Notes: generated by a model not told the origin, from the sequence alone. A stretch of 64,000 nucleotides of DNA from a virus (IMGVR_UViG_3300012667_000235:330-64329); one strand, 5' to 3'. Positions 2,251 through 30,492 are shown, counted from the first letter of the stretch. Numbers and translations: made by a program.

Positions 2251-2334
2251 ATGTCAGACATTATATTTGCTCCTGCTTCGGAACCACAAAGTCAATTTTT
2301 ATTAAGTGATAGTTGGTTTACAATATATGGTGGT
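2251..2334 (+). CDS. terL: terminase large subunit, exon 1 (MSDIIFAPASEPQSQFLLSDSWFTIYGG)
   Basis: AAGGAG RBS at 2241-2246. The 28-aa N-terminal segment ends in IYGG. Joining to 2548 gives ...IYGG|AAFAGKS, a canonical terminase Walker A. The same reading frame continues into exon 2. Confidence 0.6.
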
Positions 2335-2547
2335 GAACATAGCGCCTCCATTTAAAACCTATTTAATTCGGTGAAACCCTAACGTAAAGTCGAGGGCAAT
2401 ACCGAGCCAAGCGTAATGGCGTGTGTAGAGACTAGTCGAAAGACGTAAGCATCAAGCGATGCTGAAACAGTAGGTAGTGAAAACTAAAGATATAGTCCGA
2501 TACCCAAGGAAACTTGGGAATGCTTTAGCGAAGCATACAACAAAAAG
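2335..2547 (+). ncRNA. group I self-splicing intron, ORF-less (~213 nt) interrupting terL
   Basis: R-like GTAGAGACTAG at 2428-2438 and S-like AAGATATAGTCC at 2487-2498 can form P7 (GACUA/UAGUC). P8 hairpin AGCATC-AAGC-GATGCT. P9 hairpin CCCAAGG-AAA-CTTGGG. Internal guide GCCTCC can pair with exon end GGTGGT, with U.G at the splice site. Last intron base is G. Intron length is a multiple of 3, keeping both exons in frame. Confidence 0.65.
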
Positions 2548-3918
2548 GCAGCTTTCGCAGGTAAGAGTTTTTGCTTACTTGGAAGCATGTTACCAATTAT
2601 CAGTAATCCCGGAACTCGTGCTGTAATTATCCGTAAAACTACTAAAATGTTATCGGGTTCTGGTGGTTTATTTGATGCAGCTATCAATCTTTATTCCAAG
2701 ATTGATCCCAAGATGAAGATTAAGAGTAGAGATTTAACTATTATATTTTCATCTGGTGCAGAACTGCAGTTTACATACTTAGATAAACCTGCTGACCGAA
2801 TGAATTTGCAAGGTAGAGAATACTCCAGAATTGCTTTCGATGAATGTCAGCAATTAGACGGTGACAACGTATTCTATGCATTAAGTCGTTTACGCTCTAC
2901 TCGTGTTAAATACCCATTACAAGCACATGCTACGTGCAATCCTGATCCAAGTTCATTCTTGATGCAGTTTGTAGAGCATATGCTTGATGAGAATCTTGTA
3001 CCAATTAGGCAAGATAAATATAAAGAACGCTACTTTATTAAAGATAGCTCTGGATTTACTTTTTACGATGATAAAGAAGAGGCACATCGTGTTCACGGTG
3101 CTGGTAAAGAAAATCCTGTAAAATCATACTGCTTTATTCCCGGAAGTATTTATGATAATCCAATAGGTCTTGAACAAAATAAAGACTATATCTCTACACT
3201 TAAAGCCCTACCTCCTGTTGAATCAAGAAGATTATTGCATGGTGCTTGGGTACGTGAACAACGAAGTGGTTATTTCAAGAGAGAATGGGCAGAATTTGTA
3301 AACTATCCTAATATTAGGGCAAGCCGTAGATGCCGTGCTTGGGACTTAGCTTTTAGTGAAGCGTCTGAATCAAAACCTCGTGTCGATGCTACCGCAGGTG
3401 TATTAGTATCAAAAGAAGATAGAACAAATAAATATACCGTAGAAGATGTAATTACTCTACGTAAAAGAGTACACGAAGTTGAACAAGCTATTTTTCAAAC
3501 AGCGGAACGTGATGGAAGAGATTGTATTATATCACTTCCACTTGATCCGGGAGCTACTGCTAGTGCTTATTGTAAAGATTTATCAAGAAGATTATCTGAA
3601 CGAGGATTTACTGTAAAACTTACTCGACCAGATAGAGGTAAACTTCAAAGATTTTTACCATTTGCTTCTGTAGCCGAAGCTGGTTTTGTATCTGTTGTTA
3701 GAACAGATTGGACAGAAGATTACATAAATGAATTAGAGCAAACAGAGTTTAATAATAAAACATTTGATGACCAATGTGATGCTACTTCTGATGCTTTTTT
3801 TCATTTGAATAAGACTTTGCAGTTACCTACATTTTCACTACCTGATTTATCTCAAACTCCAGCATATAGTATTAATCCTACAGGTAGTATCCCTATCTCT
3901 GGTGTAACAATTCCATAA
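2548..3918 (+). CDS. terL: terminase large subunit, exon 2 (ATPase Walker A AAFAGKS, Walker B IAFDECQQL, C-terminal nuclease domain)
   Basis: In-frame ORF open from 2488 with no start codon before M2587, yet it carries GKS just upstream of that M. Walker B-like AFDEC. Size and position between small terminase and portal fit terL. Confidence 0.85.
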   Translation, partial: AAFAGKSFCLLGSMLPIISNPGTRAVIIRKTTKMLSGSGGLFDAAINLYSKIDPKMKIKSRDLTIIFSSGAELQFTYLDKPADRMNLQGREYSRIAFDECQQLDGDNVFYALSRLRSTRVKYPLQAHATCNPDPSSFLMQFVEHMLDENLVPIRQDKYKERYFIKDSSGFTFYDDKEEAHRVHGAGKENPVKSYCFIPGSIYDNPIGLEQNKDYISTLKALPPVESRRLLHGAWVREQRSGYFKREWAEFVNYPNIRASRRCRAWDLAFSEASESKPRVDATAGVLVSKEDRTNKYTVEDVITLRKRVHEVEQAIFQTAERDGRDCIISLPLDPGATASAYCKDLSRRLSERGFTVKLTRPDRGKLQRFLPFASVAEAGFVSVVRTDWTEDYINELEQTEFNNKTFDDQCDATSDAFFHLNKTLQLPTFSLPDLSQTPAYSINPTGSIPISGVTIP

Positions 3919-3942: not shown

Positions 3943-5421
3943 ATGGCTAGAACTAAACAAAATCAAGTCCAAGTAGAAAAGGCTATTGCACCTTCTGATA
4001 AACCTGAAAGGTTTCAGCTTGGTGAAGTAGGATATAGTGGGTTAAATCTATTTAATGGTGTAACTAACGAAGAAGTTAAAAGAGAATTAAATTGGCCTTA
4101 TAGTGCAGAGACATATAAGGAAATGAGTTATCATTCTGCTATTAATTCTTGTTTAAGCCTATACGATAGTTTAATCTCTAAAGTTGATTGGAGAGTACTT
4201 CCTCCAAAAGATGCAACCGAAAAAGAAAAGCAAGAAACTGAATTTGTAAATCAATGTATTGGTGACATGGAGAATTCTTTCCGTGATTTCATCAAAGATG
4301 CATTATCCAGTAACATTTATGGCTTCTCTATCCATGAGAAAGTATTCCGTAGACGTTATAAATCAAATGGCAGTTTATATGATGACGGTAAAATAGGTTT
4401 AAGAAAACTTGCTTTACGTAATCAAGAATCAATTTACAGATTTATTTATGATACAGATGGTAATAACATCGTAGGTGTAGAACAAGTTGTAAATGGGTAT
4501 AATAATCAAAGATATGGTAATCTAAATCAGACTAATATTATTCTACCACGCAGTAAATATGTTCATATTACTGTTGGTCGTAATAGAAATGATCCATTCG
4601 GTAAATCACCGTTACGTGATGTTTACTTAGCATGGAGATATCTGACTGTTATTCAAGAGATTGAAGCAGCAGGTGTAGCTCGTGATTTACAAGGTTTACC
4701 AGTTCTTGAGATTCCTGCACAGTATATGTCAGCAGATGCTTCTGCAGAGCAGAAAGCTATTTACGAGAACTTTAAGAATATTATTCGTAATATCCAAAAT
4801 AATAGCCAATCTGGTATTATTCTTCCTTCTGCTACAGATCCTGATACTCGTGCAAAACTATTTTCTCTTACTCTACTAAATAGTGACGGTAAGAAATCAT
4901 TCGATACAGGTAAGGTAAAAGACTTTTATCAGAATCAGATTTATACTGGTCTTGCTTGTGATCTTTTGATTATGGGTCAATCTGGTGTAGGCTCATTTGC
5001 ATTAGGTGCTTTAAAGAGTAGCATTACTGGTGCATATCTTGAATCAATGCTTGATAATATCGTAGAGATATTCAATCGTGATGTTATTCGTCAATTGTAT
5101 GATCTAAATGGGTTTGATGCTTCTCGTGCATGTTCATTAGATTATGACAATCTACATGCAGTTGATCTAGAAGGTCTGTCCAAGGCTTATCAGCGCATGG
5201 GTGCTACTGGTTTCCTACCTAAGACGGTTGATGTTATTAATCGCGGTCTTACTGCACTTGGTATTGATGAATTACCAGAAGGTACTAATTTAGATGAAGT
5301 TCTTCCTGATAGTACTACCCGCAGTGGTGATGGTATGAAAGAAGGATTGAATTCTGGTACAGGAAGTGCAGATGGATCAGGTGGTGATTCTTCAGCTAGT
5401 AACGCAGATAATACGGCTTAA
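3943..5421 (+). CDS. portal protein
   Basis: 492-aa ORF immediately downstream of terL with an AAGGAG RBS. Gly/Ser/Asp-rich C-terminal tail. Size and position are typical of portal proteins. Confidence 0.7.
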   Translation: MARTKQNQVQVEKAIAPSDKPERFQLGEVGYSGLNLFNGVTNEEVKRELNWPYSAETYKEMSYHSAINSCLSLYDSLISKVDWRVLPPKDATEKEKQETEFVNQCIGDMENSFRDFIKDALSSNIYGFSIHEKVFRRRYKSNGSLYDDGKIGLRKLALRNQESIYRFIYDTDGNNIVGVEQVVNGYNNQRYGNLNQTNIILPRSKYVHITVGRNRNDPFGKSPLRDVYLAWRYLTVIQEIEAAGVARDLQGLPVLEIPAQYMSADASAEQKAIYENFKNIIRNIQNNSQSGIILPSATDPDTRAKLFSLTLLNSDGKKSFDTGKVKDFYQNQIYTGLACDLLIMGQSGVGSFALGALKSSITGAYLESMLDNIVEIFNRDVIRQLYDLNGFDASRACSLDYDNLHAVDLEGLSKAYQRMGATGFLPKTVDVINRGLTALGIDELPEGTNLDEVLPDSTTRSGDGMKEGLNSGTGSADGSGGDSSASNADNTA

Positions 5422-5422
5422 T

Positions 5423-5821
5423 ATGAAATTAAAATCAATTATAACATCCATCATTTTAGCTGTATTAATGCACTCTGCGTTTGCTACATTACCAGCCCCC
5501 GGAACAGAAGGGGCTATTAATGATCCTAGATACTGCGGAGAGCCAGCAAGAGATAAGAACGGTAAGATTAAACGTAGTCAAACCGTTCTAAAGAAGTTTA
5601 CGGCTGTATTCCCTTGTCCGAGTACAATGTTACCAACAGCAAGCTGCCCTGATTGGGCAATCGATCATACCATTCCATTAGCAATGGGTGGTTGTGATAG
5701 TCAGGCTAATTTGACATGGCTACCTGATGCAATTAAAAGCTGTGCAGACGATGCTTGTAAAGACCGTTGGGAACGAAAGTATCATGCTATGCCACGACAA
5801 GTAATTGTTATACCGAAATAA
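5423..5821 (+). CDS. HNH (His-Me finger) nuclease with predicted N-terminal signal peptide or membrane anchor
   Basis: Start re-assigned to ATG 5423 (MKLKSIITSIILAVLMHSAFATLPAPG is hydrophobic and signal-like). HNH core CPDWAIDHTIPLAMGGCDSQANLTWLP...C..C..H. Confidence 0.6.
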   Translation: MKLKSIITSIILAVLMHSAFATLPAPGTEGAINDPRYCGEPARDKNGKIKRSQTVLKKFTAVFPCPSTMLPTASCPDWAIDHTIPLAMGGCDSQANLTWLPDAIKSCADDACKDRWERKYHAMPRQVIVIPK

Positions 5822-5840
5822 CGAAAGAAAAGAAATAATA

Positions 5841-6191
5841 ATGGCAGCTACCGTATTAAATTTATCTATCGAACAAGGAATTCCTTATTATAAGGAACTT
5901 CTGGTAAAAGACCCAAATGGTGCTAATAAGAATCTTACTGGTTATACAGCAAGGATGCAATTTAGACCTTACATATCTAGCTCAGAAATTAGTTTGGATG
6001 CAACAACTGCTAATACCAAATTACTTATTGATACGGTTAACTCCTATGTAATTATTAATCTATCAGAAGCAGATACACAAGCATTGACATATACTAGTTA
6101 TAGTTACGATATAGAACTAGTAAGTGCAGCAAATAAACCAATTAGACTTGTTCAAGGCACTGTTAGCCTAAATCAAGAAGTAACTCGATAA
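5841..6191 (+). CDS. hypothetical protein (beta-rich, possible virion protein)
   Basis: First in-frame ATG of ORF 5805..6191. No recognisable motif. Confidence 0.4.
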   Translation: MAATVLNLSIEQGIPYYKELLVKDPNGANKNLTGYTARMQFRPYISSSEISLDATTANTKLLIDTVNSYVIINLSEADTQALTYTSYSYDIELVSAANKPIRLVQGTVSLNQEVTR

Positions 6192-6219
6192 TCAACTCAA
6201 ATAAACATTAAGGATTCCT

Positions 6220-6714
6220 ATGCCTATTCTAACAACTGACATTGTATACCGTCTAAGCGGTGGTGCTGCTAATGCTGACCCTCTCCTATCTCTAGGTGGA
6301 GCTAAATCAGCTAATGCTGCTAGTACAAATATTTATGACGATGTATCAAGCGCAGAAGCTACTGCTGGTGATATTGAATATCGTTGCGTTTATATTCATA
6401 ATGGTCATGCTACCCTATCTTACCTAGGTTCAAAGATTTGGGTTCAAACCAATACTCCTTCTGCAGATACTACCGTAGCTATTGGTCTAGGTACTTCTGG
6501 TCTAAATGCAACAGAACAGACTGTAGCTAATGAAAATACGGCTCCTGTAGGCGTTACCTTTAGTTCTCCTGTTGATTTTGCAGGTGGTCTGCTAATGGGT
6601 GATATTCCTGCTGGTCAGCACTATGCAGTTTGGATTCGTCGTACAGTTAATGCCGCTGCCGCTGCAGTTGCCGATAGCTTTACACTACGTGTTCAAGGCG
6701 ATACTAATCCCTAA
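6220..6714 (+). CDS. hypothetical Gly/Ala/Thr-rich protein, fibre-like
   Basis: 164 aa with a low-complexity G/A/T/S composition. Part of the co-oriented cluster following the portal gene. Confidence 0.4.
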   Translation: MPILTTDIVYRLSGGAANADPLLSLGGAKSANAASTNIYDDVSSAEATAGDIEYRCVYIHNGHATLSYLGSKIWVQTNTPSADTTVAIGLGTSGLNATEQTVANENTAPVGVTFSSPVDFAGGLLMGDIPAGQHYAVWIRRTVNAAAAAVADSFTLRVQGDTNP

Positions 6715-6719
6715 TTAAT

Positions 6720-7073
6720 ATGCCTTATTTTGCAGATCGTGTGCAGGAAACAGTATCTGGTACTCCGGGTACTGGCCCTATTACATTAGGTGGTGCTGTA
6801 GTAAAGTTTCAAACATTTGCCAATGGATTTGATGAAAAACCTTGTTTCATTGGCTACGCTATTGAAGATGGTAATGATTGGGAAGTTGGTAAGGGTACAC
6901 TAAATAGCACAGGCACTGTACTCACTCGTGATGTATTACGTAGTAGCAGTACAGGTTCTCTATTAAATCTAACATCTGCTGCTGTTGTATTCTGTACACC
7001 TTCTGCAGAACATATTGATAATTCAAATATTGGGCATCAGTACGCGCAAGTACGTGGATTGCCTCTACCATAA
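6720..7073 (+). CDS. putative tail-fibre/receptor-binding N-terminal domain protein
   Basis: 117 aa. The N-terminal pattern ADRVQETVSGTPGTGPITLGGA...YAIEDGNDWEVGKGTL resembles conserved N-termini of phage fibre proteins. This is a recollection, not a search result. Confidence 0.35.
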   Translation: MPYFADRVQETVSGTPGTGPITLGGAVVKFQTFANGFDEKPCFIGYAIEDGNDWEVGKGTLNSTGTVLTRDVLRSSSTGSLLNLTSAAVVFCTPSAEHIDNSNIGHQYAQVRGLPLP

Positions 7074-7082
7074 GGAATAATA

Positions 7083-7817
7083 ATGGCTGGAAATTCAGAC
7101 CCAATTTATAGCAGACGAGGTGCTATTACTCGTAGCACTCTTCTTAAAACTGCTGCTGCTGATTATACTGGTGTATCTCCATATAATAAAGAAGTATTTT
7201 CTGCTGACGCAACTAATGGATCATATTTACAAAGAATACGTTTTAAGGCTATGGGTACAAATGCCGCAACTATTGCACGTGTTTATTTGAATGATGGTGA
7301 TATTACCGAAAACTTTGGAACAGCTATTGGTGCCCCAACTGGTACACCTTCTGGTACTGGTGGTAGTATTTTAGCAGGTACTTACTATGCTGTAATTATT
7401 GCGGTCAATGAAAAGAATATGTTAACACCAATCGGTACAATTTCTCTTGGTGTTGCTACTACTGGTTCTACTAGTTCAATTTCATGGAGTTGGACAGCAC
7501 AAGCTGGTGCTGTATCTTATCGTATTTATATTGGTAGTACTAACTCAACTGAAGCTTTAACTAGATATTTTACTAGTGCTACAAATAGTTATAGTCAAAC
7601 AACTATGCATTATAATGGAACTTATGATGATCCTAATGTTGGTAACTCTAAGTTCTATGGTGAAATTTCACTTCCAGCTACTACAGTTAATGTGGTGAGT
7701 CCAGATATTGATTATCCAATGAATATTGCTCTACCTCCCGGATGGGAAGTATACGTAGGACTAGTTACGGCTGTAGCTGCTGGTTGGAACATAACAGGTA
7801 TTGGTGGAGATTACTAA
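7083..7817 (+). CDS. hypothetical structural protein (T/S/G-rich, beta-sandwich-like)
   Basis: 244 aa with low-complexity T/S/G-rich composition. Directly followed by a chaperone-like gene. Confidence 0.4.
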   Translation: MAGNSDPIYSRRGAITRSTLLKTAAADYTGVSPYNKEVFSADATNGSYLQRIRFKAMGTNAATIARVYLNDGDITENFGTAIGAPTGTPSGTGGSILAGTYYAVIIAVNEKNMLTPIGTISLGVATTGSTSSISWSWTAQAGAVSYRIYIGSTNSTEALTRYFTSATNSYSQTTMHYNGTYDDPNVGNSKFYGEISLPATTVNVVSPDIDYPMNIALPPGWEVYVGLVTAVAAGWNITGIGGDY

Positions 7818-7818
7818 A

Positions 7819-8256
7819 ATGCAATATATTCTTATCAAGTTTCTTAATGATAATACACACGGATACCAAGAGATTTGCAGAGGGACTTTGGTAAGATATA
7901 CTGACCTTGATGGTGTTACTATTATACCTCATGGTTCTAATACAGTAGTTGATAGTAGTCCAGTACAACCATCATGGGCTTTAGAAGATACTCCTATACC
8001 TGTGGTTAAACCAGAAGTACCATCTGTAGTAAGTATGCGTCAGGCTCAATTAGCATTATTTCAATCTGGACTATTATCAAATATTCAACCAATTATAGAT
8101 GCGATGCCTGAACCTCAAAAGACAATTGCTAATATTGAATGGAATAAGGCAAGTGAAGTTCACAGATGTGAAGGATTTGCTATTAATATGGCAGGTTTAC
8201 TAGGTCTAACAGATAGCCAATTAGATGATTTATTTATTTTAGCAGGGACATTATAA
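7819..8256 (+). CDS. putative tail-fibre assembly chaperone
   Basis: The C-terminal segment QAQLALFQSGLLSNIQPIIDAMPEPQKTIANIEWNKASEVHRCEGFAINMAGLLGLTDSQLDDLFILAG matches the conserved Tfa/DUF4376-type chaperone C-terminus. Start set at the first ATG. Confidence 0.45.
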   Translation: MQYILIKFLNDNTHGYQEICRGTLVRYTDLDGVTIIPHGSNTVVDSSPVQPSWALEDTPIPVVKPEVPSVVSMRQAQLALFQSGLLSNIQPIIDAMPEPQKTIANIEWNKASEVHRCEGFAINMAGLLGLTDSQLDDLFILAGTL

Positions 8257-9180
8257 ATGCTTGATTTTTCTCATATACCAGAAAGTGTAGCAGATATTCA
8301 AGTATTTACAGGTAATTCTCCTACTGCTGGTGCAGTTTGGCAAACATGGGTTAAACCTCGTGGTAAGACCATGTGCAGTATTTGGATGGTTGGTAAAGGT
8401 GGCAATGGCGGTAATGGTGCTGTAGGTGCTGTTTCTGCTGCAGCAGGTGGAGGTGGAGGTGGTTCTGGTGGTATTATAACTTTATTAATACCTATGTCTG
8501 CTCTACCTAATATTTTATATCTATCACTTGCTGGACAATCTGCAACAACTACCCTTGCTAGTTATATTACTACATATCCTAGCGTTGTAGTTAACCATAC
8601 TATTGCTATTGCTAACGGTGGTGGTAATGGTGGTAATGCTTCCGCTGGTACTGGTGGTACTGCTGGTGGTGCAGGAGCGGCGTCTGCTGTAGGTTCAATG
8701 CCACTTGGTTGGCCTTTCAAACAACATACACCAGTAGCAAGTGCTCAGGGTGTAGCTGGTGCAGCAGGGGCTTCTGCAGTATATACAGCAGCACAGCTAA
8801 TTGTTGGTACTACTGTGTTCGGGGGTACAGGTGGTGCTGGTGTACCTGCTGCTGGTGCGGTAGGTAACATTAATGCTGGATATGCTGCTGTAGGTTCATT
8901 CCCTGCTCATACGTATGTTAATACTGCAACGGCAGCTACTTTACCCGGAACTCCCGGCCCTGATGGTATATTACCAATTCCCGGAATGAGAATAGCATTT
9001 GGTGGTTTAGGTGGCGGTTCTAGTCATGGTTCTGCTACAGGTGCTGGTTTATTTGGTGGTAAGGGTGGTAATGGTATTATGGGTTCTGGTGGTGGAGGTG
9101 GTGGAGGTTGCCTTACTGGTGGTACTGCTGGTCTAGGTGGACAAGGTGGCCCTGCTATGGCTATCATTACTTCTTTTTAA
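8257..9180 (+). CDS. glycine-rich protein, paralog A (307 aa)
   Basis: Conserved N-terminus MLDFSHIPE...FTGNSPT.G.VWQTW.KPRG.TMCSI..GKGGNGG. Long poly-Gly tracts (GGGGGGSGG). Shared internal MPLGWP motif. Tandem with its paralog 9190..10119. Confidence 0.6.
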   Translation: MLDFSHIPESVADIQVFTGNSPTAGAVWQTWVKPRGKTMCSIWMVGKGGNGGNGAVGAVSAAAGGGGGGSGGIITLLIPMSALPNILYLSLAGQSATTTLASYITTYPSVVVNHTIAIANGGGNGGNASAGTGGTAGGAGAASAVGSMPLGWPFKQHTPVASAQGVAGAAGASAVYTAAQLIVGTTVFGGTGGAGVPAAGAVGNINAGYAAVGSFPAHTYVNTATAATLPGTPGPDGILPIPGMRIAFGGLGGGSSHGSATGAGLFGGKGGNGIMGSGGGGGGGCLTGGTAGLGGQGGPAMAIITSF

Positions 9181-9189
9181 GGATTAACA

Positions 9190-10119
9190 ATGCTAGACTT
9201 TAGCCATATTCCAGAACGTACAATAGCTAACACTCAAATATTTACAGGTAATTCTCCTACCTTTGGTGAAGTATGGCAAACGTGGACTAAACCGAGAGGT
9301 GTTACCATGTGCTCTATTTTACTGCAAGGTAAAGGTGGTAACGGTGGCACTAGTGCTCCCGGAGCAGCTACTGCTATTGCTGGTGCCGGTGGTGGCAGCT
9401 CTGGTAATATGTGTCATCTTATAGTACCAGTGTCACATCTACCTGATACTTTGTACTTAACCTTAGCAGGTTATGGAAGTGCGTCCGGTGTAGTTAGTGC
9501 TATACAAATATCACCTAATACTGCAGTAGAAGGTAGACTTGCAAGCTGTGCAGGTGGTAACAATGGCGGTAATTCCAGCGGTGCTACTAGAGGTACTGGT
9601 GGTACGGCTCCAACAATAGCCACCAACTTAACTATGCCACTAGGCTGGCCTTATACACAATTTGTTGTGGCTGGTCAAGCTGGAACTAACGGTGGTGCAT
9701 CTCAAGCCGCTGGTAGTAATCTAACTATTCCAGTTACTGGTGCAATTGCTACTGGTGGTACTGGTGGTGGTGGTATTGATAGTGCAACAGGTACTTCTGG
9801 TTTGGTGGGCGGTTCATTTACTATAACAGCAGGTGCTGATTTTCCTGCACATGCTGGAGGTACTGCTGGCACTACTACTGCAATGGTTCCGGGTGCTGGT
9901 AAAAATGGATATAAGCTTCCAGATAAACTATTCTTCTATGGTGGTACTGGTGCTGGTAGTTCATACAATGCTGCTACAGGTGCAGGTCTAGTCCAATCTC
10001 CTGCTGGTGCCGGTGGATATGGATCGGGTGGTGGTGGATTAGCTGCTTCACAGACAGGTTCTGTTGCACAACCAGCCGCACTTGGTGGCCCTGCTCTTTG
10101 CATAATTACCTGCTGGTAA
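9190..10119 (+). CDS. glycine-rich protein, paralog B (309 aa)
   Basis: Same N-terminal about 45 aa, MPLGWPY motif and C-terminal ALGGPALCIITCW as paralog A (which ends GGPAMAIITSF). Confidence 0.6.
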   Translation: MLDFSHIPERTIANTQIFTGNSPTFGEVWQTWTKPRGVTMCSILLQGKGGNGGTSAPGAATAIAGAGGGSSGNMCHLIVPVSHLPDTLYLTLAGYGSASGVVSAIQISPNTAVEGRLASCAGGNNGGNSSGATRGTGGTAPTIATNLTMPLGWPYTQFVVAGQAGTNGGASQAAGSNLTIPVTGAIATGGTGGGGIDSATGTSGLVGGSFTITAGADFPAHAGGTAGTTTAMVPGAGKNGYKLPDKLFFYGGTGAGSSYNAATGAGLVQSPAGAGGYGSGGGGLAASQTGSVAQPAALGGPALCIITCW

Positions 10120-10150
10120 TATTTTATAACAAAATTATATTGGTAAACTT

Positions 10151-11689
10151 ATGAGTACTACAGGCAGTTTTCTTGGCTTTGGCCCAATCGCATCTTCACC
10201 AATAGCTTCAGTTCAAACTGCTGCAGTATCCGGTAGTACAGTACTCAAGGACATTTTAGCGTCCTATCTGATTAAAGCAAGTATAACAACAGATAGGACT
10301 GCTACTTTTAATATTAGAACTAGTAGTAGTTCAGATAGAAGTGCAAGTTTTAACATTAGAACATCTGCACTTTCTGATAGAGCAGCTACTTATGTTATTA
10401 AGAGTGTTATTGCATCCGATAGAAGCTCCGCTTATAATATTAGAACCTTTGCGTTATCTGATAGAAACTCTACGTTCAATATTAGAACACTAACTACATC
10501 TGATAGATTATCAAACTTCAACATACGGTCGTTAGTATCATCTGACAGAAACTCTACGTTCAATATTAGAACACTAGCTACTTCAGATAGAAGTTCTGCG
10601 TTCAATATTCGTTCACTTGTAACTTCAGATAGAACAGCAAATTATAATTTAAGATTAACTGCTGTATCCAGTGCAATTGCTACCTATAATTTACGTAGTA
10701 GTATTCTTCAAGATATTACTAGTTCGTATAGTATTTTAGTTTCTGGTACTAGTGTACTATCAAGCCTATCTGGTGCATTTAATCTAAGAGCATTTACTCT
10801 TAGTTCACTAAATGAACTCTATAATGTAAGAACTCTTGCACAGTCAAACGAAAGTGCAACATATAATGTAAGAGCGGCTGTATCAAAAGATGAAGTAGCA
10901 TCTTTCAATATTAGGACAAATGCTCTCGCTAGTTTAGTAGAAGCGTTCTTAATTAGAAGTGCTGCAAGTTCAGACAGAGGTGCTACTTATAATATTAGAG
11001 CATCTAGACAAGCTGATGGCTCCTTTACATTCAATACACGTACATTAGCTAGTTCTGATGGTATTTATGCATTCAATATTAGAAATAATATTTTATCAAA
11101 TATATCACCTACATATAATGTACGAACTCTTGCACAATCAGATAAAGGTGCAGCTTACAATGTAAGAGCTTTAGTACTTTCAGATAGAACTGCAAGCTTT
11201 AATCTACGTGCATCAACTGCTACAGTACTGTCATCTGCATACAGCATACTTTCTGCTGCAAACGTAACTTCTAATCTAATTGTAAACTATAATGTTCGTA
11301 ATATTCTATCTAAGGATGGAAGTTATAGCTACAGTATTAGATCAACGATAAATACCAGCTTTGGTGTTTCTTACGTAATCAGATTAAATACGTCTGCTGA
11401 TACATCAAGTACCTATTTGATTAGAGCAGGTACGATATCTAGTTTATCTGAGCAATATAATGTTCGTGGTTCACTTGTCAAAGATGCAATCGCTACTTAT
11501 ATTATTCAAGGTCTTGCTCCTGTGCAAAAAGACCTTAGTGCTCTTTATAGTATTCTTCAAGAGATACTACCAGATGTAACAGTAGTGTATATAACTGAAA
11601 ATGATCGTAGCACTATTTCAGTATATGACAATGACGTTACGATAGTTCAACTATTAAATGATGATATCGTTTCGATCATTGCAAAATAA
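10151..11689 (+). CDS. tandem-repeat protein, about 30 copies of a 14-residue unit (x-[ST]-[FY]-N-[IV]-R-[TS]-x-x-x-S-D-R-x), predicted beta-solenoid
   Basis: A strict 14-aa periodicity is visible across most of the 512 aa. Adjacent units form an 84-bp higher-order repeat with near-identical DNA, for example around 10466-10492 and 10551-10577. Confidence 0.6.
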   Translation: MSTTGSFLGFGPIASSPIASVQTAAVSGSTVLKDILASYLIKASITTDRTATFNIRTSSSSDRSASFNIRTSALSDRAATYVIKSVIASDRSSAYNIRTFALSDRNSTFNIRTLTTSDRLSNFNIRSLVSSDRNSTFNIRTLATSDRSSAFNIRSLVTSDRTANYNLRLTAVSSAIATYNLRSSILQDITSSYSILVSGTSVLSSLSGAFNLRAFTLSSLNELYNVRTLAQSNESATYNVRAAVSKDEVASFNIRTNALASLVEAFLIRSAASSDRGATYNIRASRQADGSFTFNTRTLASSDGIYAFNIRNNILSNISPTYNVRTLAQSDKGAAYNVRALVLSDRTASFNLRASTATVLSSAYSILSAANVTSNLIVNYNVRNILSKDGSYSYSIRSTINTSFGVSYVIRLNTSADTSSTYLIRAGTISSLSEQYNVRGSLVKDAIATYIIQGLAPVQKDLSALYSILQEILPDVTVVYITENDRSTISVYDNDVTIVQLLNDDIVSIIAK

Positions 11690-11697
11690 GGACGCAA

Positions 11698-11913
11698 ATG
11701 CAATATAACACTCAGAAGCTATCGGAAGCTGTTCGCAACAGGTTAAATCAGGCACAGGAGCCTTCAGAAGCTCCTATCCCTAGCCACCTAGCAGCTATCA
11801 TACAAAAACGTGCTACAGCGGCTTCTGATGCGTCTAATACGGATGTGCGTAAGCCAATCAAGCAAGCGTTCTTAGGTAAGAGCTACACTAACTCAAATGC
11901 GTACTTGGATTAA
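11698..11913 (+). CDS. hypothetical protein
   Basis: 71-aa ORF closing the portal-proximal cluster. Confidence 0.3.
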   Translation: MQYNTQKLSEAVRNRLNQAQEPSEAPIPSHLAAIIQKRATAASDASNTDVRKPIKQAFLGKSYTNSNAYLD

Positions 11914-11945
11914 TATCTAAATTTATGTCAATAAAAATCGTTACC

Positions 11946-11974
11946 TTGACAACGCAGAGATTTCGTGATATAAT
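11946..11974 (+). promoter_or_regulatory. sigma70-type promoter (TTGACA-17-TATAAT)
   Basis: Perfect -35 TTGACA at 11946-11951, a 17-nt spacer and perfect -10 TATAAT at 11969-11974. Lies upstream of the head-morphogenesis genes. Confidence 0.55.
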
Positions 11975-12004
11975 TATTATTAAGTTTAAATAAGATGGGA
12001 TGTT

Positions 12005-12439
12005 ATGAATAAAATAAAAAATAAACCATATATACCACCCCATGCTGATTTCACAGATATAATTAAAAGTAGATTACCAGTTAGTAAATCGGTTAATGAA
12101 GAATTAAAACAAGTATTGTATGTGGTTATGCTACCAGATAGTACTGATTTACATGGTGATATTACATCTGAAGAAGAAGTTCGTAAAGCATGTCATAATT
12201 ATAATTCATCTGATATGAAGGCTAACTTATTTCACATGACTCAAACTAATACTTTTTCAGTGATAGAGTCATATATAGCACCTGTAGATTTTGTTTTAAA
12301 TGATGTTATAGTCAAGGCTGGTACTTGGTTAGCAAAATTACAGATTAACGATGATGTTGTTTGGGATTTAGTTAAATCAGGCGACATTTGTGCCGTATCT
12401 ATCGGCGCAGTAGCTAATGTTGAGGTACTTGATGAATAA
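12005..12439 (+). CDS. XkdF-like phage protease / head maturation protein
   Basis: The MLPDSTDLHGDITSEEEVRKACHNY segment resembles the XkdF-family D.HGD...E.I..A.H motif. Located upstream of scaffold and capsid genes. Confidence 0.4.
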   Translation: MNKIKNKPYIPPHADFTDIIKSRLPVSKSVNEELKQVLYVVMLPDSTDLHGDITSEEEVRKACHNYNSSDMKANLFHMTQTNTFSVIESYIAPVDFVLNDVIVKAGTWLAKLQINDDVVWDLVKSGDICAVSIGAVANVEVLDE

Positions 12440-13052
12440 TTTCTATGTTTATGTACATAGACGCTTAACAGATAATAAGCCTTTTTATGTAGGTAAAGGT
12501 TCGGGTAATCGTGCTTGGGACTTTACAGGTAGAAATATTTATTGGGAACGTATTAAAAATAAACATGGTGTTGCTGTAGATATTGTTTTTGATAACTTAA
12601 CAGAAGCAGAATCCTTTCAGTGTGAAATAGATACGATTCTTGAATTTAAATATTTTGACTATCCTCTTACTAATCTCACGAATGGTGGAGAAGGTTCATC
12701 AGGATTAAAATTTACAGATGAACAACGATTAAGAATTTCAAATTCTACTAAAGGAAAAGTACCTTGGAATAAAGGTATTAAGAAAGCTGATGATAAGCAA
12801 TATCTGTATTCAGATGAATATCGTGAAAAGCTAAGAGAAGCAAAATTAGGTGTATTTGCAAATGAAAATAATCCGTATGCTGATAAAACTGAATATTGCT
12901 TTGTTAGGTTATCAGATGGATTTGAAATAAGATGTACTCGACAATATTTAGTAAAACATTTTGGAGCCGATGGTGGGCTGATAAAGAAAATGTTCTACAA
13001 AAAGAACCCACGTAAATCCGGCAGTGGCTGGAAGTTGAAAGGAATAGTATGA
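12417..13052 (+). CDS. GIY-YIG homing endonuclease
   Basis: N-terminal FYVYVHRRLTDNKPFYVGKGSGNRAWDF is a GIY-YIG core. Inserted between the protease-like and scaffold genes. Confidence 0.8.
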   Translation: MLRYLMNNFYVYVHRRLTDNKPFYVGKGSGNRAWDFTGRNIYWERIKNKHGVAVDIVFDNLTEAESFQCEIDTILEFKYFDYPLTNLTNGGEGSSGLKFTDEQRLRISNSTKGKVPWNKGIKKADDKQYLYSDEYREKLREAKLGVFANENNPYADKTEYCFVRLSDGFEIRCTRQYLVKHFGADGGLIKKMFYKKNPRKSGSGWKLKGIV

Positions 13053-24786: not shown

Positions 24787-27700
24787 ATGCAAATTCAACC
24801 TACTGATAACAACAAATTACAAAATATAGAAACTGAGAAATACATTGGTATTCCCTACGTTGTTAACGGTAGGGATTTTACTGGTGTTGACTGCTACGGT
24901 TTAGTAAGATTAATATATAAAGAAGAATTAGGTATTGATTTACCTAGCTTCGTAGAAGAAGACGTTAATCCTGACCGTACACAGGAATTAATCTCTCAAT
25001 ATAAAGAAGGTTGGGAACAAACTGAGAAGATTTCTGCTGGTGATGTAATTGTCTTCAGAATTAAAGGTATAGAATCTCACATTGCAATTGCAGTTAGCCC
25101 TACTCATTTTCTTCATGCTCGTGAAGGTAGTGATTCTGCTATTGAATCTTTTTCTAGTCACAAGTGGAAAACAAGATTAGTAGGAAGTTTTAAATATAGT
25201 CCAGCAAAATCAGTTGTATTAAATGGTTTACCACACCCATTAAGAACTGAAAGAATTACCACAGCTATACCTCCGGGTGTAAATGTAATTCAACTTCAAG
25301 ATTGGATTGTAAAAGAATATAATGTAAGACCTGAACTAAAGCCCTATATCAAAGTTCTTGTAAATGGAGTCCCGATTCCAGATGCAATGAAAGAAAGTAC
25401 AATCCTACAAGATAATGATTGTGTAGAATATAGAGTATTAGCACGAGGTGATAATCCTTTACGTACATTATTAACTGTTGCTGTTGTCGTTGGTGTTGCA
25501 ATGGCAACAGGGCCGGGAGGTTTTGCGGCTGGTTGGGGATCATCTGTAGGTTCTGCATTAGGTATTGGTACTAGCGCAGGTACAGCTTTAGTGAGTATTG
25601 GACTCACGGCAGTTGGAATGTCACTAGTTAATGCCATTGCACCTGTTAGAATGCCTTCAGAACTTCTTGGTCGTGACCCCGGTTCTGCTGAACGACAATT
25701 GATGGTAACTGGTGGTAATAATCAGGTTACTCAATATGGATCGATACCTTTTGTATTAGGTAAAGTAAGATTAACCCCTCCACTTGGAGCAAATAGTTAT
25801 TCATTATTTAATGCAGATGGTACTGAATCATATTTACGTATGCTATTGGTATGGGGATATGGCCCATTATCTATTGATGAGTCAACTCTTAAAATTGGTG
25901 AATTAAATATAAATAAGGTAGGTACATATAATGTAGTTACTAATTTATGCACAGTTGGATGCACATCACACGGTTTATCTGCTGGTACAGAACGACTTAT
26001 ACAATTTACATCTGGAACAGCTACGTCTGGTGTATATAAAATATTATCTACTACGACTGACAGTTTTACATTTAACATAAGTGCAGCTAACACCTCTGGT
26101 AATTGTCTTGTATATCATACATATGAAGGTATTAATCAAAAAACACTAAGTAGAATTGTAGAACCAACCCCAACAGAACTATCAACATTTAATGGCTTAT
26201 ATGGTAAGGATGTTACACAGGTTATATCTAATATTGAATTATCAGCAGACGGAGTAGCTGGATCAGCAATTACAGGGCCGTGGATAAATGCTGTGTCAAC
26301 GGATGGTTCTGCTAGTGATTTCACAGTAGCTATTCATTTCCCACAAGGTTGTCGTAAAATTATATCAAAAGGTGCAGAAGCGGGTGCTAGTGCTGCTGCA
26401 CCTGTTTCAATAGAACTTGAATATAAAACCTTAAGTGCCGTTACTTGGATTTCTGCCGGTACTACTATAATTGGTAGCACACCAGCAAAAGATGCTTTCA
26501 CAAAAATTATTAAAATAACATACCAAGCATCTGAAAATGTACAAGTAAGAGTGCGGAGATTAACCGGAACAGGTAATACAGCCCCTGCCGATGTTGATTT
26601 CCAATGGTTATTTAATAGTGTTTTATTAAATACAACTTTCTCTAGAAATGCATCACCTGCTATAGACCCTGTTAATTGTAAGATTGCTAAAACAGCTTTT
26701 GAAATAAAAGCCTCAGATCAACTTAACAGTCAAATCGAAGGTATTAATGCTATTGTAACTAGTTATGGTAAAATTTGGAATGGTACGACTTGGGTAGATG
26801 GTGCAACTAATAATCCAGCATCTTTGTTTAGGCTGGTATTAGAGCACCCCGCAAACCCAAGAAGAATTACAGATGCTGCATCTAAAATTGATCTTATTCA
26901 ATTACAGTATTGGTATGATTATTGCGTATCTAAGGGCTTTACCTACAATTCTATTGTAGGTGCTACAAGGTCTGTATTAGAAGTTTTAAGAGATATTTGT
27001 GCAGCAGGTAGAGCTAGTCCAGCCATGATTGACGGCAAATGGACAGTTGTTATTGATGAGCCAAAACTAAATGTAGTACAACATTTTACTCCACACAATT
27101 CGTGGGGATTTGAAGGTACTAAGTCACTACCTAAGATACCAGATGGTTTACGAGTAAATTTCATCAATGAAGATAAATCATATCAACAAGATGAAACAAT
27201 TGTATACGCTACTGCTAGTTCTCAGAGTAGTGCTGCTCTATTAGAAAATATATCTGTTCCCGGTGTTACTAAACTAGCTCAAGCTCAAGATCACGCCCGT
27301 TGGCATATGGCTCAAGCTAAACTTCGCCCTGAAAAATATACATTAAATACTGATATTGAATACTTGGTGTGTAACCGTGGTGATAGAGTCAAAGTACTAC
27401 ACGATGTACCAATGTGGGGATTAGGTTCTGGTAGAATTAAAAACATAGTTGGTTCCATATATTATTTGGATGAATCTATACCAATGGTTGCTAATACTTC
27501 ATATACAATGCGAGTAAGAAGTAAAACCGGATCATCTATAGTAAGAACTACAGTTGCAAAATCATCAGATGGTTACTATGATAATGTAGAATTTACTGTT
27601 CCAGCCTCTACATTAGAAGTAGATAGTGGTGATTTATTCTTATTTGGATCATTAAATTCAGAATCACAAGATTGTCTTGTATTGAATATAGAACCAATGG

Positions 27701-30492
27701 GTAATAAAACAGCTAGGCTTACGCTAGTAGACTATGGTGTGACAAATATTGAGAATATATTTACAGACTACTTAAATTATACAAATACACTAGCGTATTC
27801 TTCAAATATTACGAAACCGCCAGAGTTACTAATTCAAAGTTTTGGAACGAAAGTACCAACTATCCGAACAATCATTAGTGATGAAAGGATGATGGAACGA
27901 ATTGCGGCTGGTGTTTTTGCTTATAAGATGCATATCTCTTACACAAATGATATAGATTTACCGGCTAAAGTAAATTCTGTAGAATTTCAATGGGATTATT
28001 CAACAGCTTCAGATTATTCTGGGACTCGTAGTAAACAAGTACCTTATAATTCAGGGGCATGTTTGATTACTGGCGTTGAAGAAGGTGAAGTATTAAAAGT
28101 AAGAGCTAGATATGTTGGAAATGATGGCAGAACAGGTTTATGGACAACATGGGTAACCCATACTATTATTGGTAAAACAAATCCACCAGCATCTGTTACA
28201 GGATTTAGTATAACTCCTGATTCAGTAACTGGTAAACTTAAGTTAAATTGGGCAAGTAATACAGAACCTGATATACGTGCATATGAAGTTCGCACTGATA
28301 CTATTTGGGGAAACTCTACGAATTTAGTGTTCAGTGGTGATTCCACAACAATTAGTGTAAACCCACCAAGCTCTGGAAGCTCCATAACATATTATATAAA
28401 AGCTATTGACTATAGTAATAATTATAGCCTTACTGCAACATCTAGTTTATATACTAGTGCAGCATTATCAGATATTACAGGAATTACGCATAACTTTTAT
28501 GATACAAGCACAAGTAGTGCTACTATTACATTGAGTTGGACACCTGTCACACAAGTATTTGGTTTAGCAGGTTATGAAGTATCATATGGAGTAGAAACTA
28601 GATTTCTAGATTCAAATAGTATTTTATTTAATGCTGATTGGATTGGTGACAGGATATTTACAGTTAAAACTGTAGATAAAAATGGTAATAAGTCATCTGG
28701 GTTTAGCAAAACCATTACTAAATTACTACCAAATAGCCCAACTGTAGGTAATTTTCTAATCAATCAAGGTACATTAGTTTTTGATTGGGATGTTGCTGCA
28801 AAAACTACATTACCAATATGGGGGTATGAGGTTAGAGCTACAAACACATTTAATAATGATAGTAATTATATTTTCAAAGGTTCTGCTACTGTATGTACTA
28901 TTCCTAGATCAAATATAATTTCAGGGTCTAATACATATTATATAAAAACTATTGATACGGATAATAATTATTCTAGTACAGCCGCAAGTTTCACAACAAT
29001 AATAGCTGTTCCAGATAATGTTACTTCTGTAGACAGTACATTTAATACGTCACTAACTTCCGCAGATATTACTTTAACATGGGTAGATGTAATACCTCCT
29101 TTTGGATTAGATTATTATGAAATAACATACGATAGTGTTATCAAAACAACTAGAGCAAATACTGTTACATTTCCAGCAGACTGGTTAGGTGATAGAACAT
29201 TTACTGTAAAAGTTGTTGATACACTAGGTTATAAGAGCACAGGTCTTCAAAAAGTGATTACGAAATCACCACCAAATCCTTGCTTAAATTTTAGATCACA
29301 GGTTATCGACAATACTGTTATGTTTTATTGGGACTTGCCTACTAAAACATCGTTACCTGTTGATCATATTATTCTTAAGAAAAGTGTTGCTGGTGATGGT
29401 TCAACTTGGGCAACTGCCATAACATTAGGTGAAAAGAAAGGTGCTTTCACAACTCAAAATGAAACACGAGCTAATACATATACATACTGGATAGCTGCAG
29501 TTGATACGGATAATAGGGAATCCATCCCAATTACAATAACATCTACTGTAGCACAACCTCCTGATTTCGTTTTTAATGCAAGTTATGATAGTGTATTCAA
29601 TGCCACAGCATCTTCTGCTATTGTGGAACAAGGTTCACTGATACTACCTGTAAATACTACTGAAACTTGGGCTAGTCACTTCACAAGTAGAGGTTGGGTA
29701 GGCCCAGAAGACCCTGTTGGTACGGCTGGTCAAATAGATGCTGGTTACCCAATATTTATACAACCAACTAATGGAACTGGATACTATGAAGAAGTATTTG
29801 ATTATGGTTCTATTCTAGCTAGTACAAAGGTTTCGCTAACTTACAATGGTTCAGTAATATCAGGTTCTCCTGTTATATCAACAAACATTAGTCTTAGTTT
29901 GGATAATATTACATATACCGATTACATTGGGGTGAGTGAAGTATTCTCTTTATCATTTAGATATGTTAAAGTGAGATTTATAGTAACCGAATCAACGGGT
30001 ACAGGCTTATATTCTCTTAGGACGTTAAATGTAACTTTAGATTCAAAGTTAATAAATGATGCTGGTTCAGTATTAGCTTTGGCATCTGATACATTAGGTA
30101 CTATTATTAATTTTAATAAAGAATTTGTGGATGTTAGCAGTGTAACATTAACTCCTGCCGGTGTTACTCCGATAATTCCGGTGTATGATATACGTGGTGA
30201 CAATGCTAGTGCTACATATTCAGTAACAACAAACATATGTACAGTTACGTTAACATCACATGGTTATATAGCTGGTCAAGATGTTAGACTCCAATTCTCA
30301 ACAGGTGCTGGTAAAAGAGGTGTATATAGAATATTAACTTCTCCTACAGCAGATACATTTACAGTTTCAATGATAACAGCAAATACAAGTGGCAACTGCC
30401 TAGTATCTGCAAATTCATTTAGAGCTTATTTGTTTAATACATCAGGTGCTCGGGTAAGTGCAACAGCATCATGGCAAGTAAAAGGTTATTAA
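24787..30492 (+). CDS. tail tip fusion protein: N-terminal NlpC/P60 peptidase (gpK-like) fused to host-specificity/central fibre (gpJ-like) with FN3-like repeats
   Basis: NlpC/P60 Cys-His core (GVDCYGLVRLIY ... HIAIAV ... HFLHA) in the first about 130 aa. 1901 aa total. Internally duplicated FN3-like modules. Lambda K-I-J position. Confidence 0.8.
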   Translation: MQIQPTDNNKLQNIETEKYIGIPYVVNGRDFTGVDCYGLVRLIYKEELGIDLPSFVEEDVNPDRTQELISQYKEGWEQTEKISAGDVIVFRIKGIESHIAIAVSPTHFLHAREGSDSAIESFSSHKWKTRLVGSFKYSPAKSVVLNGLPHPLRTERITTAIPPGVNVIQLQDWIVKEYNVRPELKPYIKVLVNGVPIPDAMKESTILQDNDCVEYRVLARGDNPLRTLLTVAVVVGVAMATGPGGFAAGWGSSVGSALGIGTSAGTALVSIGLTAVGMSLVNAIAPVRMPSELLGRDPGSAERQLMVTGGNNQVTQYGSIPFVLGKVRLTPPLGANSYSLFNADGTESYLRMLLVWGYGPLSIDESTLKIGELNINKVGTYNVVTNLCTVGCTSHGLSAGTERLIQFTSGTATSGVYKILSTTTDSFTFNISAANTSGNCLVYHTYEGINQKTLSRIVEPTPTELSTFNGLYGKDVTQVISNIELSADGVAGSAITGPWINAVSTDGSASDFTVAIHFPQGCRKIISKGAEAGASAAAPVSIELEYKTLSAVTWISAGTTIIGSTPAKDAFTKIIKITYQASENVQVRVRRLTGTGNTAPADVDFQWLFNSVLLNTTFSRNASPAIDPVNCKIAKTAFEIKASDQLNSQIEGINAIVTSYGKIWNGTTWVDGATNNPASLFRLVLEHPANPRRITDAASKIDLIQLQYWYDYCVSKGFTYNSIVGATRSVLEVLRDICAAGRASPAMIDGKWTVVIDEPKLNVVQHFTPHNSWGFEGTKSLPKIPDGLRVNFINEDKSYQQDETIVYATASSQSSAALLENISVPGVTKLAQAQDHARWHMAQAKLRPEKYTLNTDIEYLVCNRGDRVKVLHDVPMWGLGSGRIKNIVGSIYYLDESIPMVANTSYTMRVRSKTGSSIVRTTVAKSSDGYYDNVEFTVPASTLEVDSGDLFLFGSLNSESQDCLVLNIEPMGNKTARLTLVDYGVTNIENIFTDYLNYTNTLAYSSNITKPPELLIQSFGTKVPTIRTIISDERMMERIAAGVFAYKMHISYTNDIDLPAKVNSVEFQWDYSTASDYSGTRSKQVPYNSGACLITGVEEGEVLKVRARYVGNDGRTGLWTTWVTHTIIGKTNPPASVTGFSITPDSVTGKLKLNWASNTEPDIRAYEVRTDTIWGNSTNLVFSGDSTTISVNPPSSGSSITYYIKAIDYSNNYSLTATSSLYTSAALSDITGITHNFYDTSTSSATITLSWTPVTQVFGLAGYEVSYGVETRFLDSNSILFNADWIGDRIFTVKTVDKNGNKSSGFSKTITKLLPNSPTVGNFLINQGTLVFDWDVAAKTTLPIWGYEVRATNTFNNDSNYIFKGSATVCTIPRSNIISGSNTYYIKTIDTDNNYSSTAASFTTIIAVPDNVTSVDSTFNTSLTSADITLTWVDVIPPFGLDYYEITYDSVIKTTRANTVTFPADWLGDRTFTVKVVDTLGYKSTGLQKVITKSPPNPCLNFRSQVIDNTVMFYWDLPTKTSLPVDHIILKKSVAGDGSTWATAITLGEKKGAFTTQNETRANTYTYWIAAVDTDNRESIPITITSTVAQPPDFVFNASYDSVFNATASSAIVEQGSLILPVNTTETWASHFTSRGWVGPEDPVGTAGQIDAGYPIFIQPTNGTGYYEEVFDYGSILASTKVSLTYNGSVISGSPVISTNISLSLDNITYTDYIGVSEVFSLSFRYVKVRFIVTESTGTGLYSLRTLNVTLDSKLINDAGSVLALASDTLGTIINFNKEFVDVSSVTLTPAGVTPIIPVYDIRGDNASATYSVTTNICTVTLTSHGYIAGQDVRLQFSTGAGKRGVYRILTSPTADTFTVSMITANTSGNCLVSANSFRAYLFNTSGARVSATASWQVKGY

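Follow-up and report, generated by a model that had tools for sequence, protein, structure and literature searches.

Phage host range is set by receptor-binding appendages. Here we analyze ten co-oriented open reading frames (ORFs; o1 to o10) at positions 5423-11913 of IMGVR_UViG_3300012667_000235:330-64329, a 64,000-nucleotide (nt) stretch of viral DNA that we call the window, where they occupy the interval between the portal gene and the prohead protease gene (the slot). The region is probably an accessory host-attachment (fiber or adhesin) locus, housed in a clade-specific hot spot at the junction of the terminase-portal and head operons. Both the class of polyglycine-rich proteins and the idea of accessory, swappable fibers are already known.

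The tail wing of mycobacteriophage Bxb1 consists of a base (gp30), an arm (gp31), and a brush (gp33), the brush resting on the arm and on the base that is fixed to the tail spike. A close relative is without the wing genes, deletion of the base gene is tolerated, and the phage can do without the wing at little cost in fitness (PMC12646305). The locus analyzed here resembles it as a candidate multigene accessory appendage whose genes are missing from close relatives. In cyanophage Pam3, the head of gp24, related to that of the phage S16 adhesin gp38, is the proposed receptor-binding part, its tips carry conserved Gly motifs between variable stretches, and the chaperone gp25 is required (PMC9608196); the o7 family shows the same alternation, and here too a small adjoining gene is a plausible dedicated chaperone. 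Pam3 gp24, Bxb1 gp33, and Bxb1 gp29 are all described as tail-tip appendage or receptor-binding parts (PMC9608196, PMC12646305), and polyglycine-rich "minor tail proteins" are a recognized class (PMC13252515). The lambda side tail fiber with Tfa and the P2 H/G pair provide a further parallel, a swappable accessory fiber locus with its own chaperone beside a central J-type fiber. Finally, the core pair of this locus, o5 and o7, has its nearest cultured carriers in the RcC-cluster phages of Rhodobacter capsulatus; in RcDormio, it is encoded within gp22 to gp24, genes that are unannotated and unstudied (PMC8601537).

Results

The window covers almost all of a 64.3-kb metagenomic contig of a freshwater siphophage with low GC content (~37%), and a near-identity DNA search of the phage collection returned no match to the region. 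Among cultured phages, it is closest to Curvibacter phage P26059A (portal 72-74% and capsid 77% identity) and Limnohabitans phage DC31 (portal 50%), both of which are long-tailed and infect freshwater Comamonadaceae (PMC12195039). Comparing the slot by tblastn in 14 portal-related IMG/VR loci and 2 cultured relatives (loci and contigs are given as L numbers), we found that the head genes flanking it are 50-90% identical among relatives, while its content is mostly nonhomologous from one relative to the next. The portal-protease interval measures about 0.7 kb in L016, where it holds a single 92-amino-acid (aa) ORF, 3.8 kb in P26059A and L012, 5.8 kb in L015, 6.3 kb in L018, 8.5 kb in L013, 9.0 kb in L014, and 9.8 kb in L009, and the slot of phiPsa374 has no cargo. 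Synteny thus bears out the indel behavior proposed in the preliminary description, with conserved flanking head genes and cargo that differs or is absent, and the slot is a clade-specific insertion hot spot at an operon junction. Like the genes of the Bxb1 wing, its cargo comes and goes among close relatives.

On the left, the slot is bordered by the portal gene (3943..5421, + strand; 72-80% identity to the portals of P26059A and the IMG/VR relatives). On the right, it ends at an extended, perfect sigma70-type promoter (11946..11974, + strand; 12/12 plus TG) that drives the head operon, followed by the XkdF-type prohead protease gene (12005..12439, + strand; Pfam Peptidase_S78_2, 5e-24), whose identity is 54-74% in close relatives and 32% in L016. 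All ten ORFs announced for 5423-11913 are present on the + strand with inter-ORF gaps of 0-31 nt, the o1 start codon lies 2 nt past the portal stop, and the sole large gap, of 91 nt (11914-12004), contains the promoter, whose sequence TTGACA-17-TATAAT with TG extension is as perfect as had been claimed. Perfect matches are scarce in 64 kb (2 seen versus 0.11 expected); the other one (TTGACA-N16-TATAAT, 41586-41613, - strand) falls in the half of the genome that is transcribed leftward.

A promoter scoring 11-12/12 precedes the protease in 9/9 relatives tested, L016 among them, and is ancestral. It had been read as the mark of head genes resuming past an insertion, a view that fails because L016 keeps the promoter without cargo; an origin of the promoter from the insertion is ruled out on the same ground. 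Since the promoter is kept in all relatives tested, the slot is the junction of two transcription units, and gene gain there therefore breaks no operon. The slot as such is conserved throughout the clade. Neither a promoter nor a convincing terminator was found in the window sequence between the portal and o1 to o10, so these genes are probably transcribed late together with terL and portal. The canonical lambda/HK97-like order, portal followed by protease, scaffold, and capsid, is interrupted here by 6.5 kb. Direct succession of portal and protease, the order described as normal, is seen in phiPsa374, a distant relative, and is closely approached in L016, and the window arrangement thus departs from a simpler one.

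What relatives carry in the slot also includes genes of adhesive or fiber-like character: a 754-aa protein with a ConA-like lectin domain in L014, an o6-type gene in L018, and final large proteins in L018 and P26059A with repeats of period 21-22 that share a PHROG with the cassette-final protein of L034 (see below). Two slot genes of DC31 are named as tail proteins by its authors (PMC12195039). Most cargo proteins of the relatives gave blanks in Pfam and PHROG scans, and the portal and tube proteins of L016 are unchanged in length, so domain gain or loss in this cargo-less locus offers no hint of an attachment site. In relatives, the slot starts with a conserved 72- to 76-aa ORF (L012 10854-11072, L013 7210-7428, L009 4596-4826, L002 15815-16039), which may resemble ChaB-like proteins, and then a large protein with a conserved N terminus of ~150 aa and a variable C terminus. 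Both of these slot-opening genes are lost from the window, except for the remnant o10.

The preliminary description treated the ten genes as one module, and this did not hold: the region is a mosaic in which at least four parts can be told apart, namely, the unrelated gene o1, the clade-specific genes o2 and o3, a portable cassette, o4 to o9, and the remnant o10. The cassette order, o4-o5-(o6)-one to three Gly-rich genes, recurs in unrelated phages, as found by looking up family members on long contigs. These include a temperate siphovirus-type contig (L021), where a GP4-type "fiber I" gene is the neighbor of the cassette; L023 and L025/L026, which combine P22-type portals with SU10-type adaptors, the cassette of the latter pair standing between portal and scaffold genes; T4-like contigs (L034, with a partial copy in L033); and another siphovirus-type contig (L035), between capsid and connector genes. 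GP4-type "fiber I" and "fiber-tail adaptor" genes border the cassette in L021 and L023, and the Gp77 and Gp80 families come from podophage GP4. The direct succession of o5 and an o7-type gene (or of o5, o6, and o7) was seen in nine other contexts, of which L023, L034, and L035 also have a repeat protein with an MLGF motif. Genomes of Planctomycetota, Acidobacteriota, Saccharibacteria, and Bacteroidota likewise carry o5 together with a Gly-rich gene, often accompanied by o4.

Within the clade of the window, the o4-o9 cassette is found in 0 of the 8 relatives for which the whole portal-protease slot was recovered; o4 and a short o5 are present in L006/L007 alone, whose contigs stop inside the slot. 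Across unrelated cassette contigs, o5 is up to 74% identical, and o7 diverges more than o5 between the same contigs, as expected if o7 is the receptor-contacting part. In RcDormio, a 442-aa fiber-like protein (gp22), a short o5 (gp23), and a Gly-rich protein of the o7 family (gp24; profile E 1e-35) end the tail cluster, after a GTA-type hub protein and before the holin. One copy of the cassette has an unusual non-tail setting: in the Zavarzinella formosa genome (L037, 3364-6020), an o4-o5-o7 trio lies just 3' of two glycosyltransferase genes (GT25, GT2) and 5' of MerR/excisionase-like and primase-helicase genes. This locus is an integrated element with no recognizable tail genes and is uninformative.

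The most telling products of the cassette are its Gly-rich proteins. By its predicted model, o7 (8257..9180, + strand) joins a TNF-like beta-sandwich to a polyglycine-rich domain, a lattice of extended Gly-rich strands that would serve as a "brush" or fiber head, and o8 (9190..10119, + strand) follows as its tandem paralog. That the two are paralogs was confirmed (44% identity, E 3e-45); GGxGG runs are visible in both, and tandem Gly-rich copies are usual, with two in L023, L025, and L035 and three in L020 and L040. Members of the o7 family number 349, run to about 300-320 aa, and come without exception from metagenomes; in an alignment of 69 of them, Gly occupies 18 of 19 invariant columns and the majority of those that are almost invariant, so that conserved Gly motifs alternate with variable stretches. 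Pfam PF21722 (Gly_rich_2) is matched by 16 of these 69 sequences (best E 1.7e-7), and the predicted o7 model matches Bxb1 gp33, Pam3 gp24, and Bxb1 gp29. On this modeled fold, we place o7 and o8 in the described polyglycine-rich fiber/brush class (PMC9608196, PMC12646305, PMC13252515). Pam3 gp24 docks to the baseplate by an N-terminal helical shaft that o7 and o8 lack, and these proteins must therefore presumably ride on another protein.

Upstream of the Gly-rich genes lie three smaller ones. The first cassette gene, o4 (6720..7073, + strand), encodes a putative fiber base or adaptor domain, copies of which, with 38-60% identity, stand directly 5' of o5 in L020, L021, L023, L034, L035, L037, and L038. 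In L025, the domain forms the N terminus of a 443-aa protein, and it weakly matches the N terminus of small "tail fiber" proteins that open fiber clusters in T7-like freshwater podoviruses. Its neighbor o5 (7083..7817, + strand), the core partner of the Gly-rich proteins, is modeled by AlphaFold2 as a jelly-roll (pLDDT 85) with an FN3-like insert at about aa 88-187; its family comprises 1575 homologs (55-78% identity), all unannotated, including short forms without the insert. The description of o3, o4, and o5 as three low-complexity fiber-like proteins is not borne out: none is of low complexity, and o5 has this modeled fold.

The third gene, o6 (7819..8256, + strand), is a putative fiber-assembly chaperone, for which the ATG at 7819, with GGAG upstream, is a more likely start than the alternative TTG at 7801. 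Similarity to its homologs is confined to the C-terminal part, from about residue 37-99 on, and homologs of this half lie directly 3' of the annotated tail fiber in P26059A and, in an Acidovorax phage of P2-like type, where P2 has gene G; in the window, o6 is directly 5' of o7. The gene is present in the cassettes of L021, L023, L025, L034, and L035 and absent in L020 and the prophage-like loci. A small gene adjoining a fiber gene, with one conserved C-terminal and one variable N-terminal half, is what Tfa-type chaperones such as lambda Tfa, P2 G, Mu U', and Pam3 gp25 look like, and o6 has this form. It has no Pfam (Tfa included) or NCBIfam match, and its PHROG matches are all families of unknown function. 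Thus, the earlier guess of a Tfa-like chaperone is upheld by the gene context of the homologs and not by sequence membership in a chaperone family.

The last cassette gene, o9 (10151..11689, + strand), encodes a 512-aa repeat fiber protein with an N-terminal FLGFGPIASSPIAS motif, 14-aa repeats, and a C-terminal domain of ~55 aa. The 14-residue repeats noted earlier are real, with ~31 tandem copies, a TRF period of 42 nt, and an autocorrelation peak at 14 aa. We count o9 as part of the cassette because proteins behind the Gly-rich genes in L023, L034, and L035 share its N-terminal motif, their start MLGF.PIS..PI corresponding to o9 residues 7-20; these proteins have 391-743 aa and a repeat period of 20-22 residues versus 14 in o9. 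The repeats and C terminus of o9 match two L014 proteins and P0241/P0242, the latter carrying ConA-like lectin domains, and repeats of this type are also present toward the C terminus of a large tail protein in Aeromonas phages of the Casjensviridae. By these alignments, o9 is a chimera in which a docking-type N terminus of the cassette has been set on the clade's own repeat and C-terminal module. A large-database search with o9 gave three matches only, and PDB sequence searches with o1 to o7, o9, and the o7 profile gave a single weak match, that of o9 to Fusobacterium CbpF (E 0.005), the one match bearing on a possible beta-roll of the trimeric-autotransporter 14-residue-repeat type in o9.

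Pfam, NCBIfam, and PADLOC scans of all ten module proteins gave nothing above threshold, and a reading of the module as a defense system or set of enzymes is without support in these scans. The GC content at third codon positions (GC3) is 0.14-0.20 in most module genes, which is the genome level, with o1 (0.29) and o10 (0.43, an outlier) standing apart; the raised GC at 8.5-10 kb, over o7 and o8, is due only to Gly and Ala codons. Since GC3 matches the genome background, the cargo is not a recent acquisition, and the GC3 test for a recent foreign origin is negative.

Outside the cassette, o1 (5423..5821, + strand) encodes a small Cys-rich protein with a signal-peptide-like N terminus, MKLKSIITSIILAVLMHSAFA up to a following T by reading of the sequence, and an HNH-like DH...N...H motif. 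It has no homolog in the slots of relatives in the tblastn comparison. The preliminary description called it a signal-peptide HNH nuclease; the motif is indeed visible, and the HNH call is weak, the score to Pfam HNH PF01844 being 13.2 bits against a cut-off of 21.4. An HNH-like fold is still plausible, given the motif and one tblastn match to a gene annotated "hnhc" (E 2e-6), and we regard o1 as an independent insertion of a putatively exported HNH-like gene that stands outside the fiber cassette.

The next two genes belong to the clade. The 116-aa product of o2 (5841..6191, + strand) falls in a family labeled "L-shaped tail fiber protein assembly" (phrog_1084, 1e-20; phrog_3304, 1e-8), is 60% and 45% identical to two L014 copies, and recurs in L018, L008, L011, and DC31; in cyanophage P-HM1, its homolog neighbors VrlC, YadA-domain, and gp7 baseplate genes. 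The 164-aa product of o3 (6220..6714, + strand; phrog_13135, 5e-30) is 63% identical to that of the gene paired with, and directly behind, an o2 copy in L014. Two further homologs, both of 36% identity, are KVP40.0353, which stands between gp15 and terS, and a gene of an N4-like Alteromonas phage that lies two genes 5' of the portal. From gene order, we would guess that o2 and o3 are clade-specific fiber-associated genes. At the other end, the 71-aa ORF o10 (11698..11913, + strand) looks like an N-terminal vestige of the relatives' first slot gene: by BLAST, its residues 21-61 correspond to residues ~60-102 of the 568- to 677-aa first-in-slot proteins of L012, L013, L009, and P26059A, its first ~20 residues resemble the start of these proteins by eye only, and the intervening core and the remainder are gone. 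On this alignment, o10 is a recombination scar, the leftover of a gene displaced by the incoming cargo.

The tail genes of the window are of lambda-like siphovirus type and encode a Phage_tube_2 tube protein, a chaperone, a 1402-aa tape measure protein, M-like and L-like proteins, and, beside these and a K-J fusion, a 510-aa fiber-like protein. The central tail fiber (24787-30492) is one 1901-aa protein in which an NlpC/P60 (lambda K-like) domain is joined to a J-type protein, so that a single fusion gene replaces separate K, I, and J genes. The suggestion of an extra appendage or receptor-binding locus is supported, and this would come on top of a complete lambda-type tail tip.

Several further features lie near the locus. 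In terL (2252-3918), the Walker A motif is interrupted by a small ORF-less group I intron at about 2293-2547 (Rfam RF00028, 67.9 bits versus a gathering score of 50, E 3e-17), which had been missed in a 13.5-kb scan at the "gathering" cut-off; residues 5-38 of the relatives' TerL map to 2233-2334 and residues 39-494 to 2548-3915, and the same intron is probably present in L017. Immediately 5' of terL exon 1, a 250-aa ORF (1490-2242) carries an HNH-type motif and, toward its C terminus, a region that looks DNA-binding; it may encode a free-standing homing endonuclease tied to the intron-bearing terL. Between the prohead protease and scaffold genes, a GIY-YIG-type endonuclease ORF (12417-13052) overlaps the protease stop; it occupies the same site in P26059A (73% identity) and is absent in most IMG/VR relatives. 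The top PHROG match of the window protease (12005-12439), phrog_1530, bears the label "DNA methyltransferase," as does the XkdF-type protease gp161 of phiPsa374 (L031 10456-10911) in RefSeq, and this label is probably a propagated misannotation. A tRNA gene (Rfam tRNA, 48.5 bits) occupies 326-397, close to the window's left end.

Discussion

The functional readings given here are based on gene context and on two predicted structures, those of o5 and o7. We propose that o4 and the jelly-roll protein o5 would form the base or arm of an appendage, that o6 would be a dedicated chaperone folding the Gly-rich proteins, and that o7 and o8 would provide TNF-like and polyglycine-rich heads whose variable loop tips may bind host surface glycans or lipids. 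The repeat protein o9 would dock by its short conserved N-terminal motif and extend a long repeat fiber. Such an appendage would decorate the tail tip as an auxiliary, nonessential adsorption device, like the Bxb1 wing, and a swap of the cargo in the slot would change host range.

A number of observations weigh against this proposal. The likeness of o7 to gp33 and gp24 is at the level of fold and comes from a predicted model; sequence similarity to Bxb1 gp29-34 was not found, and o7 and o8 themselves have no PF21722 match at E <0.1. Neither o4 nor o5 has a characterized relative, the fold matches of o5 are to generic jelly-rolls (Z <=9.3), and the roles of o2, o3, o4, and o5 are guesses deduced from gene order. 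Moreover, the cassette lies within head-gene modules in three lineages (the window, L025, and L035), among replication genes in a T4-like contig, and beside glycosyltransferase and primase genes in Zavarzinella, and because of these settings gene position alone does not indicate a tail function.

Where the appendage sits is the point on which the strongest alternative turns. Head or neck fibers (whiskers), built on the capsid or connector, are an unlikely candidate that would explain why the genes stand in the head module beside the portal, as they do at the portal-protease junction in the window, the portal-scaffold junction in L025/L026, and the capsid-connector junction in L035. Homologs of o3 likewise adjoin neck and terminase genes in KVP40 and lie near the portal in the N4-like phage. 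The jelly-roll matches of o5 include capsid cement, capsid turret, and capsid structural proteins, but these matches are generic, and lambda J and carbohydrate-binding modules are also among them. Every solved relative of o7 is a tail-tip component, the genes of RcDormio, L021, and L023 lie within or beside tail-fiber clusters, and an appendage that binds the capsid would need to suit unrelated capsid families. The preliminary description named head fibers or whiskers; nothing points to them in particular, and we consider a siting on the tail roughly twice as likely as one at the head or neck.

A bolder and rather doubtful extension of the proposal is that o4 to o9 form a self-contained plug-in appendage, with base, chaperone, heads, and fiber, that fits virions of unrelated architecture (siphovirus, podovirus, and T4-like) in hosts of many phyla, possibly at the head or neck. 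Attachment there would explain the repeated placement of the cassette inside head-gene modules.

It is improbable that the cassette is not virion associated at all and instead encodes a moron acting in or on the infected cell, for example in superinfection exclusion or host-envelope modification. Its place among replication genes in the T4-like contig, the Zavarzinella copy beside glycosyltransferases and a primase-helicase, and the export signal of o1 would fit such a role, but the nearest structures are virion parts, the contexts are mostly structural modules, the Gly-rich genes are accompanied by a chaperone-type gene and a long repeat fiber, and there is no match to defense-system models. 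No signal peptides or membrane segments were noticed in o2 to o9 on reading the sequences, for which no predictor was run. Very improbable indeed is an order ancestral to the clade, with nothing inserted and the module as ordinary core structural content, since, although all close relatives hold genes between portal and protease and several slots end in a repeat-rich protein, the cargo differs almost wholly between relatives with head genes of 70-90% identity, is missing in L016 and phiPsa374, includes in o10 a truncated leftover of the relatives' first slot gene, and shares o4 to o9 with unrelated phages and with none of the eight fully recovered slots.

An accessory host-attachment locus, the reading we favor, differs from each of the described systems. 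The Bxb1 wing is built on a carboxypeptidase base protein without counterpart here and in turn lacks the jelly-roll of o5, the chaperone-type gene, and the long repeat fiber of this locus; the Bxb1 genes stand at the end of the tail cluster and these follow the portal, in a phage whose host is Gram-negative. BLASTP of Bxb1 gp29-34 against all module proteins returned nothing at E <0.1, and this search for an orthologous wing with the gp30 carboxypeptidase base and gp31 arm was negative. In contrast to Pam3, where the chaperone gene is downstream of its client, the putative chaperone gene is upstream here, and sequence similarity between o6 and the known Tfa-type chaperones is not detectable. 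RcDormio lacks counterparts of o4, o6, and o9 detectable by BLAST, and its o5 is without the FN3-like insert. The lambda and P2 fiber loci have Pfam Tfa and fiber domains that are not found here, and they encode one long fiber, whereas this locus, in a head-module site, encodes several small proteins.

Whether the locus is a system not described before, as was first suggested, has a divided answer: we have not found the cassette described, while its key proteins belong, by modeled fold, to a described polyglycine-rich fiber/brush class. The searchable literature yielded no description of the six-gene cassette, its conserved o4/o5 partners, or the N-terminal motif of the repeat fiber, nor of the breadth of distribution of the cassette or the portal-protease hot spot.

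For annotation pipelines, these results carry the warning that position in a head module does not give function. With more than 1500 homologs of o5 and about 350 of o7, assignment to the brush class would annotate many "hypothetical" genes at once, and because cultured Rhodobacter phages hold the core pair, the proposal is directly testable. For abundant freshwater phages, the locus provides a concrete route for the exchange of appendages, an operon-junction hot spot that takes up whole fiber cassettes. If the plug-in reading is true, the cassette would be a general and transferable module for host range, a kind that has yet to be described.

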